Of a stretch of 64,000 nucleotides of DNA, positions 10,242-61,412 are shown piece after piece (positions within the stretch are counted from its first letter, which is position 1; every line of letters begins with the position of its first letter). This stretch comes from Octopus vulgaris. Lineage: Eukaryota. The translations under genes and the position numbers were made by a program. The stretch is taken from contig OX597816.1 of NCBI GenBank assembly GCA_951406725.2, positions 73,842,001-73,906,000 of the forward strand. Reading direction: 5' to 3'. The notes below the pieces were generated by a model. The model was not told where the DNA came from. It was given only the letters and a program-made list of their open reading frames with translations, and searched no databases.

Positions 10242-10816
10242 CATATATATAAATATATATCAAGAAGGCAATGACAAATGACTGCGACCTTTGGCATTAT
10301 GCTGTGCTTGAGAAGAAGACCCATCAAGCCAAGTGAAACTGCAGTTGGGGAAGATACTTATTTCTTTACTACCTACAAGGGGCTAAACATAGAGGGGACA
10401 AACAAGGACAGACAAACGAATTAAGTTGATTATATAGACCCCAGTGCGTAACTGGTACTTAATTTATTGACCCCGAAAGGATGAAAGGCAAAGTCGACCT
10501 CGGCGGAATTTGAACTCAGAACGTAACGGCAGACAAAATACGGCTAGGCATTTCGCCCGGCGTGCTAACGTTTCTGCCAGCTCGCCGCCTTTGGGAAGAT
10601 ACTGGTGTCATGCAAATGGCACCCATGCTGGTGGCACATAAATGCATTCACTACACTCTCAGAGTGGTTGGCATTAGGGAGGACATCCAGCTGTAAAAAC
10701 CATGCCTTCCAACTTGCTGGCTCTGGTTAAACCGTCCAACCCATGCCAGTATAGACCAGATACGTTAAATAATGATGATTTTGATATACACACATATGTT
10801 CATACATACATACATC

Positions 10817-10851
<35 letters not shown>

Positions 10852-11052
10852 GCAATAATAATTCTCTAAATGAGATATAGACAGTGACTGCTCCATAACA
10901 TAAGGGACATTAGCCAACTGAATATGGCTAGGGACAGGGCAGGGTGGTGGGGGTGTCACTGTTGCATTTAGCACCAGGCGAACATCAACGTCACCAGATA
11001 GGCCGACGCCATCACGGCGTCCTCTATCTTGCAAAGGGAGATCATTCCCCAA

Positions 11053-11125
11053 GAAGCGGATGCCACATACGGACCTAGGTTTCAAGGTGTATTGCCTATT
11101 ATCAACGTATGGTAGGCACCGCTTC
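11053..11125 (-). ncRNA. Type I hammerhead ribozyme (U3:A8 variant), copy 1
   Basis: CAUACG-UUGAUAA-uAGG caauaca CCUu-GAAA-CCUAGG-UC/CGUAUG. Helix I is extended by UGCC/GGCA and GAAGCGG/CCGCUUC. Confidence 0.85.
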
Positions 11126-11407
11126 TCGACGAACAACTCACCGTGCAAGATATATATAAAGATTTTCAAGTAAATACATTTACTGATTTCGAAAATCTGT
11201 TCGACAGCAATAATAATTCTCTAAATGAGATATAGACAGTGACTGCTCCATAACATAAGGGACATTAGCCAACTGAATATGGCTAGGGACAGGGCAGGGT
11301 GGTGGGGGTGTCACTGTTGCATTTAGCCCCAGGCGAACATCAACGTCACCAGATAGGCCGACGCCATCACGGCGTCCTCTATCTTGCAAAGGGAGATCAT
11401 TCCCCAA

Positions 11408-11480
11408 GAAGCGGATGCCACATACGGACCTAGGTTTCAAGGTGTATTGCCTATTATCAACGTATGGTAGGCACCGCTTC
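11408..11480 (-). ncRNA. Type I hammerhead ribozyme, copy 2
   Basis: Identical to copy 1, offset by 355 bp. Confidence 0.85.
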
Positions 11481-12014
11481 TCGACGAACAACTCACCGTG
11501 CAAGATATATATAAAAATTTTCAAGTAAATACATTTACAGATTTCGAAAATCTGTTCGACAGCAATAATAATTCTCTAAATGAGATATAGACAGTGACTG
11601 CTCCATAACATAAGGGACATTAGCCAACTGAATATGGCTAGGGACAGGGCAGGGTGATGGGGGTATCACTGTTGCATTTAGCCCCAGGCAAACATCAACG
11701 TCACCAGATAGGCCGACGCCATCACGGCGTCCTCTATCTTGCAAAGGGAGATCATTGATAGAGGACGCCGTGATGGCGTCGGCCTATCTGGTGACGTTGA
11801 TGTTCGCCTGGGGCTAAATGCAACAGTGACACCCCCACCACCCTGCCCTGTCCCTAGCCATATTCAGTTGGCTAATGTCCCTTATGTTATGGAGCAGTCA
11901 CTGTCTATATCTCATTTAGAGAATTATTATTGCTGTCGAACAGATTTTCGAAATCAGTAAATGTATTTACTTGAAAATCTTTATATATATCTTGCACGGT
12001 GAGTTGTTCGTCGA

Positions 12015-12087
12015 GAAGCGGTGCCTACCATACGTTGATAATAGGCAATACACCTTGAAACCTAGGTCCGTATGTGGCATCCGCTTC
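12015..12087 (+). ncRNA. Type I hammerhead ribozyme, copy 3 (predicted cleavage after C12068)
   Basis: Helix I 12029-34/12069-74, core TTGATAA 12035-41, GAAA 12057-60, palindromic ACCTAGGT helix III, GUC triplet. Confidence 0.85.
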
Positions 12088-12242
12088 TTGGGGAATGATC
12101 TCCCTTTGCAAGATAGAGGACGCCGTGATTTGCGTCGGCCTATCTGGTGACGTTGATGTTCGCCTGGGGCTAAATGCAACAGTGACACCCCCACCACCCT
12201 GCCCTGTCCCTAGCCATATTCAGTTGGCTAATGTCCCTTATG

Positions 12243-12281
<39 letters not shown>

Positions 12282-12294
12282 GACACATATAAAT

Positions 12295-13125
12295 CATCAT
12301 CATCATCATTTAACGTCCGTTTTCCATGCTAGCACGACTTGGACGGTTCGACCGGGGTCTGGGAAGCCAGGAGGTTGCACCAGGCTCCAGTCTGATCTGG
12401 CAGTGTTTCTACAGCTGGATGCCCTTCCTAATGCCAACCACTCCATGAGTGTAATGGGTGCTTTTTACGTGCCAGGAGAGGCTGGCAGCGGCCCCAATTG
12501 GTTGGTGCTTTATCGTGCCACTGACACAGAAGCCAGTCAAGGCGGCGCTGGCATCGGTCATGTTCAGATGGTGCTTTTTACATGCCACCAGCACAGGTAT
12601 CACAACTACAATTTCCATTTGATATTTATTTTGATGTTGATGTACTTGACTCAATAAGTCTCCTCAAGCACAGCAGGTCATGTGCCACCGGCACAGAAGC
12701 CAGTCAAGGCAGCGCTGGCATCGGCCACGTTCGGATGGTGCTTTTTACGTGCCGCTGGCACAGGTATCGTAACTACAATTTCCATTTGATATTTATTTTG
12801 ATATTGATGTACTTGACTCAATAGGTCTCCTCAAGCACAGCAGGTCACCCTACGATCCAAAGTAAGCACAGCAGGTCGTTCTGCAATCCAAGGTACTTTG
12901 GATGGGCTAGGGCTATGCGAAACTGGTGCAGGAAGCAGCCTGGGTCTTTGCAGTCACAGCATATCTCCAGAGATCTCGGTCTTTTGTCATTGCCTCTGTG
13001 AGGCCCAACGTTCGAAGGTCATGCTTGACTACCTCATCCCATGTCTTCCTGGGTCTACCTCTCCCCCTGATACCTTCAACTGTTTGGGAGTGGCACTTCT
13101 TCACACATCTCTCCTCTTCACACAT
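12295..13125 (+). mobile_element. Composite (CAT)n-flanked SINE with internal ~60-150 bp duplications, joined to a minus-strand RTE LINE 3' coding end (12930-13125)
   Basis: cagctggatgcccttcctaatgccaaccact motif, seen in many copies (9830-10110, 15700-16190, 17450-17810, 26365-26860, 49280-49990). RGRGRPRKTWDEVV..DRDLWR is an RTE C-terminus. Confidence 0.75.
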
Positions 13126-38657: not shown

Positions 38658-38919
38658 CATTCTATTATTGTTTTACCTGTTTCACCCATTTGACTGCGGC
38701 CATGCAGGAGCACCGCCTTAAATGGTTTTAATCGAACAGATCGACCCCAGGACTTATCTTTCAAGTTTAGCACTTATTCGATTGGCTCCTTTTTGCCGAA
38801 CCGCTAAGTTATGGGGACGTAAACACACCAACACCGATTGTCCAGCAGTGATGGGGTACAAACATAGACACAAAGACAGATATACATTCACAAAACACTT
38901 AGTTGCGTTAACAAAGGGT

Positions 38920-39186
38920 TAAAGTTGTAAAGACATGAACATGACGTACATAGGGGAGACATATAGGAGCATTGCGGAACGAATAAATGAACATCGGAGA
39001 CAATATGACGACAAAAAACAGTCCTCCATACTCTACCAACATGCCAAGGACCACCATGGAGGCAACTTGGGTCAACTTGACATCCACATCTTATCCAAGC
39101 ACCCGAAAGACCCAACACTCAGACAAATACAGGTGTACGTCCTTATAAATGAAACCTCCCCAATACTAAATAGGAAATATACGTAG
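38920..39186 (+). pseudogene. GIY-YIG endonuclease C-terminal fragment of a second Penelope-like family
   Basis: YIGETYRSIAERINEH...H....H..G...LRQI....I....P.LN pattern. Confidence 0.8.
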
Positions 39187-39629: not shown

Positions 39630-42453
39630 GGGTGGTTGATTCTCAATTAGTTTTAATGATGATGATTCAGTTATTTGAGCAATTGAATCTCCTGCTCATT
39701 GAATTAGCATGCAAGTGGTCGAGTACTCCACAGACGTGTGTACCCTTGATATAATCCTTAGGCAGAATCATAGTGATACAGTGGGAGTTTGTAAAACAAA
39801 GTGTAACTTAGTAAATTACAGTTCCCGGCTTCTGTACAGTTTCTGTCCATCCAATTTCACTCCTAATGTAAAGGTTGAAGTGGAGATTAGGGTGTTGGAT
39901 TCATGACTGTAAGATTGTGGTTTCAATTCCTGAATTGGGCAATGTGTTGCATCCTTGAGCAAGACACTTTATTTCACATTGTTCCAGTTCACTCAGCTGA
40001 CAAAAATGAGTAGTACCTGTGATGGACTGGCATCCCATCCAGGAGAAAGTATATTCGTCAGAGAATCCAGGAAAGCAACCTTGTGAGTTTATATGACTTG
40101 AGAAGGATCCTTATCCTTTGTTTGGGTTGACCCAAAGCTATAGAAAATGACATTTGCCTCCTAAGATGCCAACAGTCAGATTGAACCTAGGACCTCATGG
40201 TTATGAAGCAAACTTTTTAACTAATCAACCACATTATGTCTATACACACACATGCACAATTATACTTATCCTTATAATATACAATGGGGGTTTCTGTAAA
40301 TCAGAAGGGTGTCCTTCAACAATGACTCCCCCTATAAATACTAAAGGTGACCCCTTGATAATACATGGTGAAGAAAGGTGCAGACCTCCCCCAAAGCTTA
40401 CAACATAGTAGACTTCACTAAATACACCCAAAGACAACCAGATGGTAGTTTTTATCTGAACACTAATTTGACCCTTTTGCTACGATATTTCTGTTAAAAT
40501 ACACAACCTTTGTTTTGGTCAAATTTTAAAATAATGAAAAATTTAGTAAATTAACTGTCATTAATAACTGGTGTTTGGAATATAAATTTGTGGCAAAGCT
40601 TCTACTGTATTTTGAACCATCTGACTCAGATTTCTTGGTTTAGAACCATGGCTTAAGTATGATACCATAAATGGTAAAGGCCGGCTACAAGAAATAAACT
40701 GTTTCACCATAAAAGTCAATGACACATCCATGAATATGGTTTAACCAATCAGATTGGCTCATGTGTAACCAATCAGTGGTAGACTTGAAAGAAAGTTTTG
40801 TGAATTTTCTTGCTAAATAGTTCTACAAAAGGTTCTAGAACTTTGGCTAAACATTATAAAAGTTGGGATACTGAACTCCCAAGCAGAACAACTTCAGATG
40901 CTACACAGAACTTTGTCAATCAGTTTTGTCGCAAAGGTGTTCTCACTTTTCTACTTTGTTATACAAAACCATGAACAGCTTTTGTATAAATAAGTAAAAT
41001 ATACTATGCAATGAAGATTTTTAACTATCACATTCATTATCCCATGTAAGCCATTTTATTCAAATATTTATAGTACAAACATAAATGTTTGGGGTTATAA
41101 AAACCATTGAAACAAGAAATATTAGTGTGTTTGATCATTCTCACCTTCACACACAGCCTACCTAATAATGTGAACTACCAACAATAATTTAATGACAAAC
41201 TTGCGCTAAAATGGATAACCTGACTAAAAATTAATATGAACATTTGATGGAAGGTTCTAATTTGGACCACTGAAAACCAGAAAGTTCATATCATAAAACC
41301 AAGGGTGGTCTCAGCAAGGTTGGTATTAAAAGCAAAGTTTACTGGTTAAACCCATCAACACATAGTTTGGTGAAAAGAAATAAATAAATGGAGTAAAAGT
41401 ATTAAATAGGAGAGTCTAAATAGCCAAAACTGTGAAAAATAGGTTGATGTCACTCCCAGTTGTTGGCTTATATCCTGGTTGATGTAATAGTACAATTACA
41501 ATAGATCTTTTATCTCATGCAGTCAGCTTTTATTTGATTCATTGACAACATGGTACAAGATACAGTTGTGTGGTTAAGACATTCACTTTACTTTGCAACC
41601 ATGAGATGCTGGGTTCAAGCCTACAAGCATCTTGGTACTTCAATATTTTAGAGGTCAATGTCACTGGCAATTTGAACAAATGTTTTCTTCCAGAGTCTCA
41701 GTTTCACAGAATGCCTAGTGAATAGAATTTGGTACACTGTGTGAGCCCAGGACTATTAACCATGAGGACTACTGCAACAAAAGTGAAATGCAAATTTAGT
41801 TATATTAAAAGTGCTTAGTCATATTTGTTTGACGCGCTGGTTTTTCGCTATGCGACATCAATCTTCTTTTAACATCTGTCTTGAAGGATAATGGTGTTTG
41901 CTTCATTGGTCAGTTATAATCACACTGATGTGATTTCCCCAGGGTCTGATCCTGTACTGGTTATATGGAGATCCTGGTTACAACCTAAACAACAGAGACC
42001 CCTTTTCAACTTCACTGGAGTACTCCAAAGAATGGAAATAAAAAATTTGTGTGTGTGTGTATCTTTTATCTTTTGTTCGTTTCAGTCATTACATTGCAAC
42101 CATGGTGGGACACCACCTTGAAGAATTTTAGTTGAACAGATTAACCCCAGTATTTGCGTGTATTTAGATTAAGCCTGGTACTTAATCTATTAATCTATTT
42201 TACTGAACTGCTAAGTTATGGGGGCATAAACACACCAACACTGGTTTCAAGCAGTGGTGGTGGACACACGGACACACACACACACATACACATGATGGGC
42301 TTCTTTCAGTTTCTATCTACCAAATCCACTCACAAGGCTTTGGCTAGCTCAAAGCTATAGTAGAAGACACTTGCCTAAGTTGCCATACAATGGGAATGAA
42401 CCCAGAACCAAATGGTTGGGAAGAAAACTTCTTATCACACAGCTGTACCTGTG

Positions 42454-43869
42454 TACATCCACGATACCAACCATGCTCTCCGGCTTTTCAACTCTTTCTC
42501 CTTTCCTCCCGGCTCCTCCAAAATCCTTTTTACTATGGACATCCAAAGCCTCTATACTGTTATCCCTCACCACGAAGGACTGCAGGCCCTTCGACACTTT
42601 CTTGACCTCCGCTCTAACCCTGTACCTGACACCTCCACACTCATTCGTCTGGCCGAACTTGTCCTTACTCTGAACTGCTTCTCGTTCGCGGGCGAGTTCT
42701 ACCATCAGGTCTCGGGAGTGGCCATGGGAACGCGAATGGGCCCCAACTATGCGAACCTGTTCGTTGGCTATGTTGAGGCCCAAATATTCTCTAATTTCAC
42801 TGGTCCCACTCCTGAACTATATGGTCGTTACATTGACGACATTATCGGTGCCACCTCACTCTCCCGCGAACATCTAGATTCCTTCCTCTCTTTCGTCCAA
42901 TCTTTCCATCCAGCCCTCCACTTCACTTCCACTATCTCCAACACCTCTGTCTCCTTCCTCGACATTTCGGTTAGCATTCTTCACTCCACTCTTACCACCT
43001 CCATTCACTACAAACACACAGACTCACACTCATACCTCAACTTCTCTTCCTCCCGCCCAGAACACACCAAGCTTTCCATCCCCTATTCCCAATTCCTCCG
43101 TCTACGTAGGCTCTGTAGTGACGACCATAACTTTGAGACTCAGTTTCAACGTATGGCTCACCACTTCACCCTACGTGGATACCCCCTCACCACTATCCAC
43201 ACCGCCCTTGCCAGAACACGGTCCGTGGACCGTGTATCTGCTCTCTCTCCCCGAACCCGCCCTGTAGTCTCCCGCCTCCCTTTTCCCCTCACTTACCACC
43301 CCACGACCCTACGTCTCCAACGCACCATTCTTCGAGCTTTCCGTCAGCTCCAGTCCGACCCGTCCACTTCACACCTCTTCCCTAACCGACCCCTCCCCTC
43401 TTTCAAACGAGCCCACAACCTTCGAGACCTTTTGGTCCATAGCTCCTTCCCTGACCCTACCTCCCAACCCGGCTCGTTCCCCTGCTCCCGCCCACGTTGC
43501 CGCACTTGCCCTTACCTCTCCAACACCACCCGCCTCACTAGCACCCACCATCGACCCTATCCCATCATCCACTCCTTCACCTGCACCTCCAGCCATATTA
43601 TCTATTGCATCTCTTGCTCTCTCTGCAATTCCTTGTACATCGGACAAATGGGACGCCGCTTGGCTGACCGGTTCGCGGAACACCTTCGTGACATCCACTT
43701 TGCGAACGACACACCGGTCTCACGCCATTTCCGCTCCACCGGTCACTCCTTGCAACACCTATCTGTGTTCGGTTTGTCCTTACACAGAGGCCATCCAGAT
43801 TCCCGTTTGCGCCGTGAACAGGAATTAATCTTCTCTCTTCGCTCTTATACGCCATTTGGTCTCAACTCT
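42454..43869 (+). CDS. Penelope-like reverse transcriptase + Cys-linker + GIY-YIG endonuclease (N-terminally truncated)
   Basis: MDIQSLYTVIPH, QVSGVAMGTRMGPNYANLFV, RYIDD, FLD, YKHTD, CSRPRCRTC, IIYCISCSLCNSLYIGQ..RFAEH, PFGLN. The ORF ends outside these coordinates are SINE and low-complexity read-through. Confidence 0.93.
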
Positions 43870-44477
43870 CCTCCCTCCTCATCTAACCCCCCTCTCCCCC
43901 CTCCTCACCTATCCTTTCCCCCCCGACCCCTACTTCTTCAGTCCTTCATCCTTTCACCCCTACTCCCCTTCCCTTCTTCCCTCTTTCTCCCTCCCTCCTT
44001 CCCTCTTCCCCTTCCCTCTGCTCCCTCACTCCCTCTCTCCCCTTCTCTCTCCCCCTCTCCCTCTTTCCTCCTTCCTCCCCCTCATCCCCTTCCTTCTCCC
44101 CCTCCCCATCCTCTCCTCCTCCTCCTCCCCTTCTCTTTCCCCCCTCTTCTTCCCCTCCCCTTCTCTCCCCCTCTTCTCCCCCTCCCCCTCTTCTCCTCAC
44201 TACACCACACGACGTTACACATCACATCATATATGATGTGCCATACTAATACATACACCAATTAATACATACTAATACGTACTAATACATACTAATACAT
44301 ACTAATACATACACCAACCCTATACATACACACGTCCAGACCCCGCATACGCACTTATACTCTCTCATACACACACACACACACTTATACATACTAATAC
44401 GTACTAATACATACTAATACATACACCAACCCCATACATACGCACGTCCAGACCAATCCTACGCACTAATACTCTCT

Positions 44478-44512
<35 letters not shown>

Positions 44513-44746
44513 ATACATACTAATACATACACCAACCCTATACATTCACACGTCCAGACCCCTCCTACGCACTATTAGCTGGTCCTTCAACCCTTTTATC
44601 AACCCTATTATCTCCCCTTATTTCGCTCTCGCGTCTCATGTTTGATCTTTGACCTCTGGCCGAAATCAGATCGCCATGTTGATTCGTTAGCTACTGCACG
44701 CATTTTTTTCTCTCCTTCTTTCTGTGTTTTTTTGTCTCTCTGTGTA

Positions 44747-44784
44747 TCTTTCTGTTGAAGAGCGTAGGCTCGAAACGTTAAAGA
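44747..44784 (+). ncRNA. HHR-like motif of the Neptune terminal repeat (atypical CUGUUGA core)
   Basis: UCUUU-CUGUUGA-a-GAGC guag GCUC-GAAA-CG-UU/AAAGA. Confidence 0.65.
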
Positions 44785-44881
44785 CTTGTTTTATTTATAT
44801 TTCCTGAGCGCCATACTAATACAATTGTTCGTTTGTTTTCCACCTGCCTTCGTCTTTTGTCTATTTTCATAAAGCTTCCCG

Positions 44882-44916
<35 letters not shown>

Positions 44917-52001: not shown

Positions 52002-52515
52002 AACTTATAAATAAGGGCTAAAGAAAATTATTTCAATGCCAATATGCTGATAACAGACTTTTAAAACGTCAATTTCTACATATTATTTACTCGCTACAGA
52101 AAAAAACGCGAAGAACTGAAATCGGGGAAAGCTGGCCGATAGAATTTTTTTAAAAAGTTCGTTATTTCTATATTGAATCAATTTCGGAATTAATCTCATA
52201 GAAGATTCTTTCCTCTTCAGTAGAACATACGAAAGGCTTTGTCTTTTTTCTATGGGCGCATGTAAGTATCTTATTTATATCCTTTCGCATCTTCTACTGA
52301 AGAGGAAAGAATCTTTTATGAGATTAATTCCGAAATTGATTCAATATAAAAATAACGAACTTTTAAAAAAAATTCTATCGGCCAGCTTTCCCCGATTTCA
52401 GTTCTTCGTGTTTTTTTCTGTAGCGAGGAAATAATATGTGAAAATTGACGATTTAAAAGTCTGTTATCAGCATATTGGCATTGAAATAATTTTCTTTAGC
52501 CCTTATTTATAAGTT
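52002..52515. mobile_element. Fold-back PLE-type terminal remnant with HHR in both arms
   Basis: Arms 52002-52236 and 52281-52515, highly similar; (TA)n flanks. Confidence 0.85.
52166..52225 (-). ncRNA. Type I HHR, intact-looking (plus copy 52292-52351 has a helix I mismatch)
   Basis: UUCUA-CUGAAGA-GGAA..AAUCU/AGAUU..UUCC-GAAA-UUG auu CAA-UA/UAGAA. Confidence 0.75.
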
Positions 52516-61037: not shown

Positions 61038-61041
<4 letters not shown>

Positions 61042-61408
61042 GGCAAATATACGTCACGATGTGTTGCCGCTACTGTTTATAACTCGCTCTGAGATTTATC
61101 ATTGTTTGATTTCACTTTTTCAATATCAGTGTCAATCGATACTGGAAAAAGTATATGTATTTGTGAGGGGAACTGACTTCTCATCGACAACTATGATTGT
61201 CACACGCCAATGATAGGTCAATACCTTGAAACTCGAGTCCGTGTGTATCGTAAGTTGAAGACGGGAAGGATGACTTCCCTTCACAAATACTGATAGGGCA
61301 CAGAAAGTGTGTCTATAGCCAGCTGGAGGAGGTGTCTTCCTGGGGCTACAAACTACAGTAGCATCCACCCTTAGGGGTTGGCCATATTCAAATGGCAAAT
61401 ATACGTCA

Positions 61409-61412
<4 letters not shown>
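61038..61412 (+). mobile_element. Retrozyme-like 352-bp monomer with 23-bp terminal direct repeat, inside (TA)n
   Basis: aaatggcaaatatacgtcacgat at 61038-61060 and 61390-61412; central HHR; collinear with the 355-bp unit. Confidence 0.85.
61201..61245 (+). ncRNA. Type I HHR with mutated core (CCAAUGA)
   Basis: CACACG-CCAAUGA-uAGG ucaaua CCUu-GAAA-CUCGAG-UC/CGUGUG. Confidence 0.8.

Follow-up and report, generated by a model that had tools for sequence, protein, structure and literature searches.

Retrozymes are an established class of elements that is widespread among animals. Metazoan non-LTR retrozymes are described as noncoding tandem repeats with a unit of 150 to 450 bp, a GC content below 50%, one type I hammerhead per unit, and a self-paired monomer (PMC7229834). 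The main text of that report does no more than propose Penelope-like elements (PLEs) as retrozyme partners. A study of vertebrate retrozymes (Li, Clavereau, and Pollet 2026; 10.64898/2026.07.22.740005) based its case for PLE dependence on co-occurrence and on homology to pLTRs, drawing on vertebrates, three insects, and a coral; the word "tail" is absent from its main text. So far, both the mobilizing enzyme and the circular template have been argued from co-occurrence and pLTR homology. PLE insertions themselves consist of partial tandems, often with an inverted 5′-truncated copy, have a one-sided tail of 30 to 40 bp, and are biased toward microsatellites and (TA)n (10.1101/2021.04.23.441226). 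Purified PLE protein cleaves both strands of the target and extends them; it initiates reverse transcription at two internal positions on the RNA, and the distance between these equals the tail (PMC11167929).

We analyzed a young repeat array in a 64,000-nucleotide stretch of Octopus vulgaris DNA (contig OX597816.1), here called the window. Its features are listed in Table 1. The layout is that of a tail-out inversion inside (TA)n, with both 3′ ends facing outward into (TA)n; arm A spans u160 to u355 on the minus strand, and arm B spans u178 to u311 on the plus strand. Unit positions u1 to u355 correspond to window positions 11206-11560, minus strand, in the hammerhead sense.

Table 1. Features of the octopus array, in window coordinates
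Feature	Position	Strand	Remark
Left (TA)n target run	10817..10850		
Arm A, 2.55 head-to-tail units	10851..11756	-	RNA sense minus; outward 3′ end = u355
Units of arm A	10851-11205, 11206-11560, partial 11561-11756	-	
One-sided 44-nt "tail," u312-u355	10851..10894	-	between two putative RT start sites; inverted arm ends at 10895
Type I hammerhead core 1, U3:A8	11072..11105	-	predicted cut 11072/11071; with helix I ~11044-11134
Putative 355-nt monomer, releasable by both minus-strand hammerheads	11072..11426	-	
Type I hammerhead core 2	11427..11460	-	predicted cut 11427/11426
Inversion junction	11756..11757		arm A u160 joined to arm B u178
Arm B, 1.38 units	11757..12246	+	RNA sense plus; outward 3′ end = u311, no tail
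Type I hammerhead core 3	12035..12068	+	predicted cut after 12068
Right (TA)n target run	12247..12275		

An earlier, sequence-only reading of this DNA had described an exact 355-bp period, near-identical and CpG-rich copies in both orientations, (TA)n on both sides, and a densely helical unit, and each of these descriptions held. Tandem Repeats Finder reported the 355-bp period with 2.6 copies at 10851-11756 and 98% matches. Units 1 and 2 differ at 3 sites, as do unit 2 and the partial unit 3, and the 490-nt inverted arm (11757-12246) differs from a unit dimer by 3 substitutions and 1 insertion. The (TA)n sequence was seen at 10817-10851 and 12244-12275. The ratio of observed to expected CpG is 0.83 in the unit versus 0.42 in the window. 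All four helices named in that reading are present in the predicted fold of the monomer, which was more stable than any of 100 shuffled sequences (z = -5.3). The unit, 355 bp head to tail with 45% GC, falls within the 150 to 450 bp and the GC limit of 50% given for retrozymes. The longest stop-to-stop frame within the array is 131 amino acids, and there is no RT or GIY-YIG open reading frame (ORF) such as would mark an autonomous PLE. Both flanks (10360-10780 and 12310-12850) are very-high-copy short repeats, with a depth far above that of the unit in four contig sets, and we take them to be SINE-like. Folding of a read-through RNA of the whole locus predicts that the inverted arm covers the plus-strand core, along with one of the two minus-strand cores, by base pairing. 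The copy at 10851-12246 may therefore be a dead end rather than itself a source.

The closest described elements share much with this array. Its unit size equals that of the mussel (350 to 390) and axolotl (330/350) retrozymes, and axolotl HHR_Amex2 likewise has a 2-bp helix III with a tetraloop and a U.U at the base of helix II (PMC7229834). The octopus element differs from the retrozymes of that report in its U3:A8 core and, compared with the head-to-tail repeats in the main text, in occurring as dispersed short insertions that hold no more than three cores, are mostly tail-out and inverted, and have 3′ ends at two fixed positions. Cleavage and circles were demonstrated for those retrozymes and are putative in the octopus family. 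Like PLEs (Craig et al. 2021; Frangieh et al. 2024, PMC11167929), it has a partial tandem, an inverted 5′-truncated copy, a one-sided tail, an AT-rich or (TA)n target, and a hammerhead in the repeated part; unlike PLEs, it has no RT/GIY-YIG ORF, its tail is 44 rather than 30 to 40 nt long, and its hammerhead is canonical rather than minimal. It resembles the vertebrate retrozymes (10.64898/2026.07.22.740005) in its probable PLE dependence, unit size, and low repeat number, but the evidence here is insertion anatomy, and we found no pLTR homology to a coding PLE. It differs from plant LTR retrozymes in having a type I rather than a type III hammerhead and no LTR pair around an internal region.

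We examined the hammerheads in the array. Each full unit carries the type I motif previously proposed for it: a 6-bp helix I, UUGAUAA, GAAA, a palindromic helix III, and GUC. Helix I is canonical, with an internal loop, and helix II consists of 3 bp and a basal U.U mismatch. There are three cores in total, and the two partial units carry none. Two consecutive minus-strand cores lie 355 nt apart. The cut that had been predicted after 12068 concerns the lone plus-strand core; a same-strand pair that could release a monomer would be found only on the minus strand (11426-11072). Rfam hammerhead models, suggested as a check in the sequence-only reading, returned no hammerhead match even at E<=5 or E<=10, only hairpin look-alikes. 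Because these models miss the cores, identification of the hammerhead rests on the motif together with covariation.

For the covariation analysis, we used 64 sequences, comprising 49 distinct copies of the family and 15 copies of a sister family. Paired cells made up 97.4% of the total, versus 20 to 56% in slid controls. Double-sided changes between the two families were found in distal helix I (2 pairs), helix II, helix III, the palindromic loop, and the 3-8 pair, and one double-sided change was found inside the family itself, in proximal helix I. Since most changes divide just two lineages, this covariation amounts to few events. The 3-8 tertiary pair, said earlier to be preserved, is indeed kept, as U-A in 49 sequences and C-G in 15. 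A further candidate compensatory pair, u87/u144, was rejected as two separate one-sided changes. The U3-A8 pair is a known natural hammerhead variant with activity in vitro, and hammerheads tolerate U.U at 10.1-11.1 (PMC3088659). Schistosome PLE hammerheads also have U3-A8, and a palindromic helix III is associated with dimeric cleavage (PMC4209133). Mapping of four contig sets (X1, X2, X8, and X16; contigs only) gave patchy cover with no end pile-ups and no usable joints. One 390-letter contig of X1, matching window positions 11053-11358, has ~90% unit identity and C/G at positions 3/8.

We next consider the family in the genome. The exact 34-nt core occurs 121 times, while a reversed control pattern gave 0 hits, and a DNA search with the unit gave 1,277 first-look candidates, of which 40 were scored. 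No locus has more than three cores among the 100 listed of the 121 exact cores. The exact cores are dispersed over many contigs, in agreement with the earlier view of a mobile noncoding hammerhead repeat rather than a satellite. From the scored unit matches and listed exact cores we drew 76 distinct insertions: 46 tail-out inverted, 29 single-armed, and 1 complex. Selection of loci required an almost complete unit or an exact core, which leaves short copies undersampled. We distinguished 32 family haplotypes among 60 loci.

Two related groups were identified. The sister family, found beside a PLE, is ~61% identical over the whole unit and gave 2,637 first-look candidates. The third group, a U3.G8 subfamily, is ~90% identical, with 70 pattern hits and a period of 361 to 362; a natural U3/G8 core is on record (PMC7151607). 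U3.G8 is an intermediate state between U3:A8 and C3:G8. In the window, an older sister-family copy lies between TA runs at ~61039-61410 (plus strand), with a damaged core and a model match at 61179-61266, and a C3:G8 hammerhead-like motif near 52220 (minus strand) resembles those at loci L042 and L062. Elsewhere, there are further noncoding hammerhead elements, each having a palindromic helix III of its own, at L074:386-900 (tail-out, ~65% like the sister family), L049:1-290, and L075:3770-4360. These elements suggest that several retrozyme families form a superfamily in this genome. By eye, a CUC-loop-GAGA hairpin within the tail (u325-u345) is seemingly common to the family, the sister family, and the L074 and L049 elements. 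This hairpin is a candidate RT recognition element; we did not find it ahead of TA runs in the PLE loci scanned.

We then determined where the insertions end. Among 123 outer 3′ ends, 68 lie at u303-311, 50 at u348-u2, and 5 elsewhere, and a TA-rich run adjoins 117. The sequence-only reading had expected copies to start at permuted positions. Contrary to this expectation, 118 of the 123 outer 3′ ends belong to one of two fixed classes separated by 44 nt, and only the inner 5′ ends scatter. Moreover, the two classes are paired: 42 of the 46 tail-out loci combine an end at u300-312 with one at u348-355, the remaining 4 have one atypical end, and in none of the 46 are both ends of the same class. 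The 44-nt spacing leaves a one-sided tail, and together with the partial tandem and the inverted 5′-truncated copy it gives the layout of a PLE insertion, a match that the sequence-only reading had missed. The same paired ends were found in 13 of 14 tail-out loci of the U3.G8 subfamily (the exception, L231, stops at u311 on both sides); in the sister family, too, the majority of inverted loci have this pair of end positions. For the inversion junctions, we started from 41 junctions, dropped 13 as unclean, and left out 3 with a gap; an overlap of at least 3 nt was present in 10 of the 25 clean junctions counted, versus 5% expected. The copies are dispersed, and at two nonrepeat targets flanking repeats of 12 nt (L010) and ~11 nt (L218) are visible, longer than the 4 bp by which target duplication in retrozymes is judged; such repeats are unresolvable in (TA)n. 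Since the paired u311/u355 ends match the PLE pattern in an element without an ORF, we infer that a PLE enzyme acted, with one priming event per strand. It is highly probable that this is a PLE-mobilized noncoding retrozyme, taking both options for the template together.

We also searched the PLEs of this genome for a partner of the element. A GIY-YIG scan of the genome gave 6,136 candidates, and several PLE families have long open frames and (TA)n ends. One young family (L061 to L069), with many intact copies, has two ORFs, the upstream one overlapping a 781-amino-acid RT-EN frame; its tail is ~39 nt, versus 44 nt in the retrozyme, and it carries a U3:A8-type core with a palindromic helix III. 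The window itself contains a 5′-truncated PLE at 42400-44883 (plus strand), with a 621-amino-acid frame, an RVT_1 match (E 2e-6), a Cys motif, a GIY-YIG-like domain, and a 3′ terminus within (TA)n; a minimal motif resembling a hammerhead lies near 44750-44790. The PLE family of window positions 42400-44265 is very young and abundant (17,100 candidates; frames up to 1,214 amino acids). A further PLE lineage gave 5,520 candidates; a GIY-YIG fragment of it lies at 38902-39177 (plus strand) in the window, and a relative at L241 has a 665-amino-acid RT-EN frame. Using sensitive blastn and a covariance model, we found neither the unit as a pLTR nor a PLE 3′ region resembling the unit in 80 plus 10 PLE-anchored loci, so that no partner PLE emerged from them. 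Matches in those loci were rejected as pLTRs, each being a separate insertion of a related noncoding family, and a weak match in L046 proved to be a short AT-rich repeat.

These searches bear on the possibility that the copies are 5′-truncated pseudo-LTR remnants of an autonomous coding PLE. Coding PLEs have the same insertion anatomy (10.1101/2021.04.23.441226), U3-A8 hammerheads with a palindromic helix III occur in PLE pLTRs (PMC4209133) as well as in the 781-amino-acid family, Xenopus retrozymes are related to pLTRs (10.64898/2026.07.22.740005), and our PLE survey reached only some of the PLE loci in the genome. Nevertheless, we judge this origin quite improbable. The arms consist of up to ~3 pure units without an ORF, and helix I is of the canonical 6-bp form with an internal loop, not the minimal PLE form. 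No PLE ORF is fused to the unit in 76 plus 19 to 20 family loci; the refuting case named in the sequence-only reading, a unit always found as the terminal repeat of a coding PLE, thus does not hold in these loci. With seven PLE queries, tblastn detected PLE pieces only at least 400 nt from the insertion in the 76 loci, and one 30-amino-acid piece in 20 subfamily loci. No abutting upstream sequence is common to the 29 single-arm loci; one pair shared a repeat that was not abutting. An ordinary satellite, a fold-back artifact, or an assembly error with a chance hammerhead look-alike is barely credible and is largely refuted already. Inverted chimeras are a known long-read artifact, and there is the lack of an Rfam hammerhead family match; against these points stand dispersal over many contigs, fixed paired ends, arms that differ by private mutations, compensatory changes in every helix, and the contrast between 121 core hits and none for the control pattern.

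The remaining alternative accepts mobilization by a PLE but has as the template an uncut linear multimer transcript, or template jumping on linear monomers, with circles as a by-product. We consider this unlikely, even though the anole PLE in vitro used uncut RNA as its dominant substrate and its own hammerhead was dispensable (PMC11167929). A point against excision by hammerheads is that cleavage in vitro failed in 8 of the 9 Xenopus retrozyme dimers examined (10.64898/2026.07.22.740005). The octopus monomer is predicted to misfold, and the geometry of the insertions fits a linear template equally well. As for the template, arms exceed 360 nt in 67 of 123 cases and 715 nt in 10; the cleavage site, u135, is crossed two or three times in 21 alignments; 130 of 131 crossings are free of indels; and no inner end lies at u135, the nearest being at 130, 138, and 140. 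Precise crossing of the cut site is, in our view, unlike what would be expected of template jumping. Copies of a linear source should never be longer than the source, yet arms of 900 to 1,055 nt, with uniform units in each, occur in at least five haplotypes, and the listed exact cores include no locus with more than three. Of 985 subfamily-diagnostic sites compared between units of the same insertion, 964 agree, and new variants fixed in all units require a monomer step. For a variant from one unit to reach all units of both arms, there must be a monomer step followed by remultimerization, and rolling on a circle provides both. Some observations do not fit this picture. At 6 of 84 discordant sites, in 4 loci, the variant is present in some but not all units, and locus L161 is a mosaic; these few mosaic loci favor a linear template and are unexplained by a single circular template. 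Part of the unit uniformity could come from assembly polishing or gene conversion. The sequence-only reading had called the array a rolling-circle cDNA. The part of this claim that specifies a monomeric, possibly circular template is indirectly supported by the arm lengths, the precise crossings, and the unit agreement.

We favor as the probable description of the family a nonautonomous, noncoding non-LTR retrozyme that a PLE RT/GIY-YIG endonuclease copies; the template would be a monomer RNA of 355 nt, most likely circular. Tandem units would first be transcribed. Two hammerheads, evident from their motif and conservation, would then base-pair with each other via the palindromic helix III and excise a monomer, which a host ligase may close, by analogy with work on coral, mussel, and axolotl. 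A protein that is presumably of PLE origin would nick both strands of a (TA)n run, with RT beginning at two internal sites, ~u311 and ~u355, one per strand, where the fixed ends are found. Each cDNA would roll beyond the ligation site for up to ~3 rounds, which would yield the long arms observed, and the cDNA ends would join, often via short microhomology, into the tail-out inversion and one-sided 44-nt tail seen in the insertions.

We also compared predicted folds of the hammerhead. Single cores of both families were predicted to prefer an inactive fold in which 10.1-10.4 pair with helix III/loop 3, and this fold was predicted to be more stable than the active monomer in all 49 family copies and all 15 sister copies. 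When cofolded, two cores were predicted to take the dimeric active form, at -41.2 kcal/mol versus 2 x -19.1 for the monomers. The pairs of the alternative fold show two double-sided changes and one single-sided change between the families. Position 10.1, which is unpaired in the active fold, changed from U-A to C-G together with loop 3; it alone counts as free evidence for the off fold, since the other positions are constrained by the active fold. Because fold energies omit tertiary contacts, we treat the off switch as hypothetical. The fuller model suggested by these predictions is possible, though doubtful: a self-regulating RNA circle, primed twice by the PLE enzyme, with a hammerhead that has a conserved off fold. 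The family may also have evolved in part at the RNA stage. Among variants common to all units of a locus, A-to-G changes outnumber T-to-C changes 15 to 8, a weak and unpolarized excess, and A-to-G changes account for 15 of 58 such variants versus 9 of 171 private variants. With the A/G changes unpolarized, the idea of RNA editing stays unsupported.

A search of mainly open-access papers, PMC7761336 and PMC8967140 among them, found no published octopus or cephalopod retrozyme and no paired-end tail in a retrozyme. The locus shows the genome-readable features of metazoan non-LTR retrozymes, with cleavage and circles as predictions, and we class it as an additional member of that group. The evidence in the genome for its mobilization by a PLE is unusually direct. 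The family preserves a genomic record of the reaction: two putative RT start sites resolved to the base, each used on a different target strand, together with longer-than-unit arms copied from one variant. With a defined 355-nt substrate and defined start sites, the intact PLE proteins of the same genome could be assayed in vitro, and a hammerhead that is off as a monomer and on as a dimer could be tested by mutation. If the off fold is true, the circle would be spared from self-cutting while the tandem precursor cuts as a dimer, and this would explain how animal circles escape self-cleavage, which PMC7229834 left as a question.
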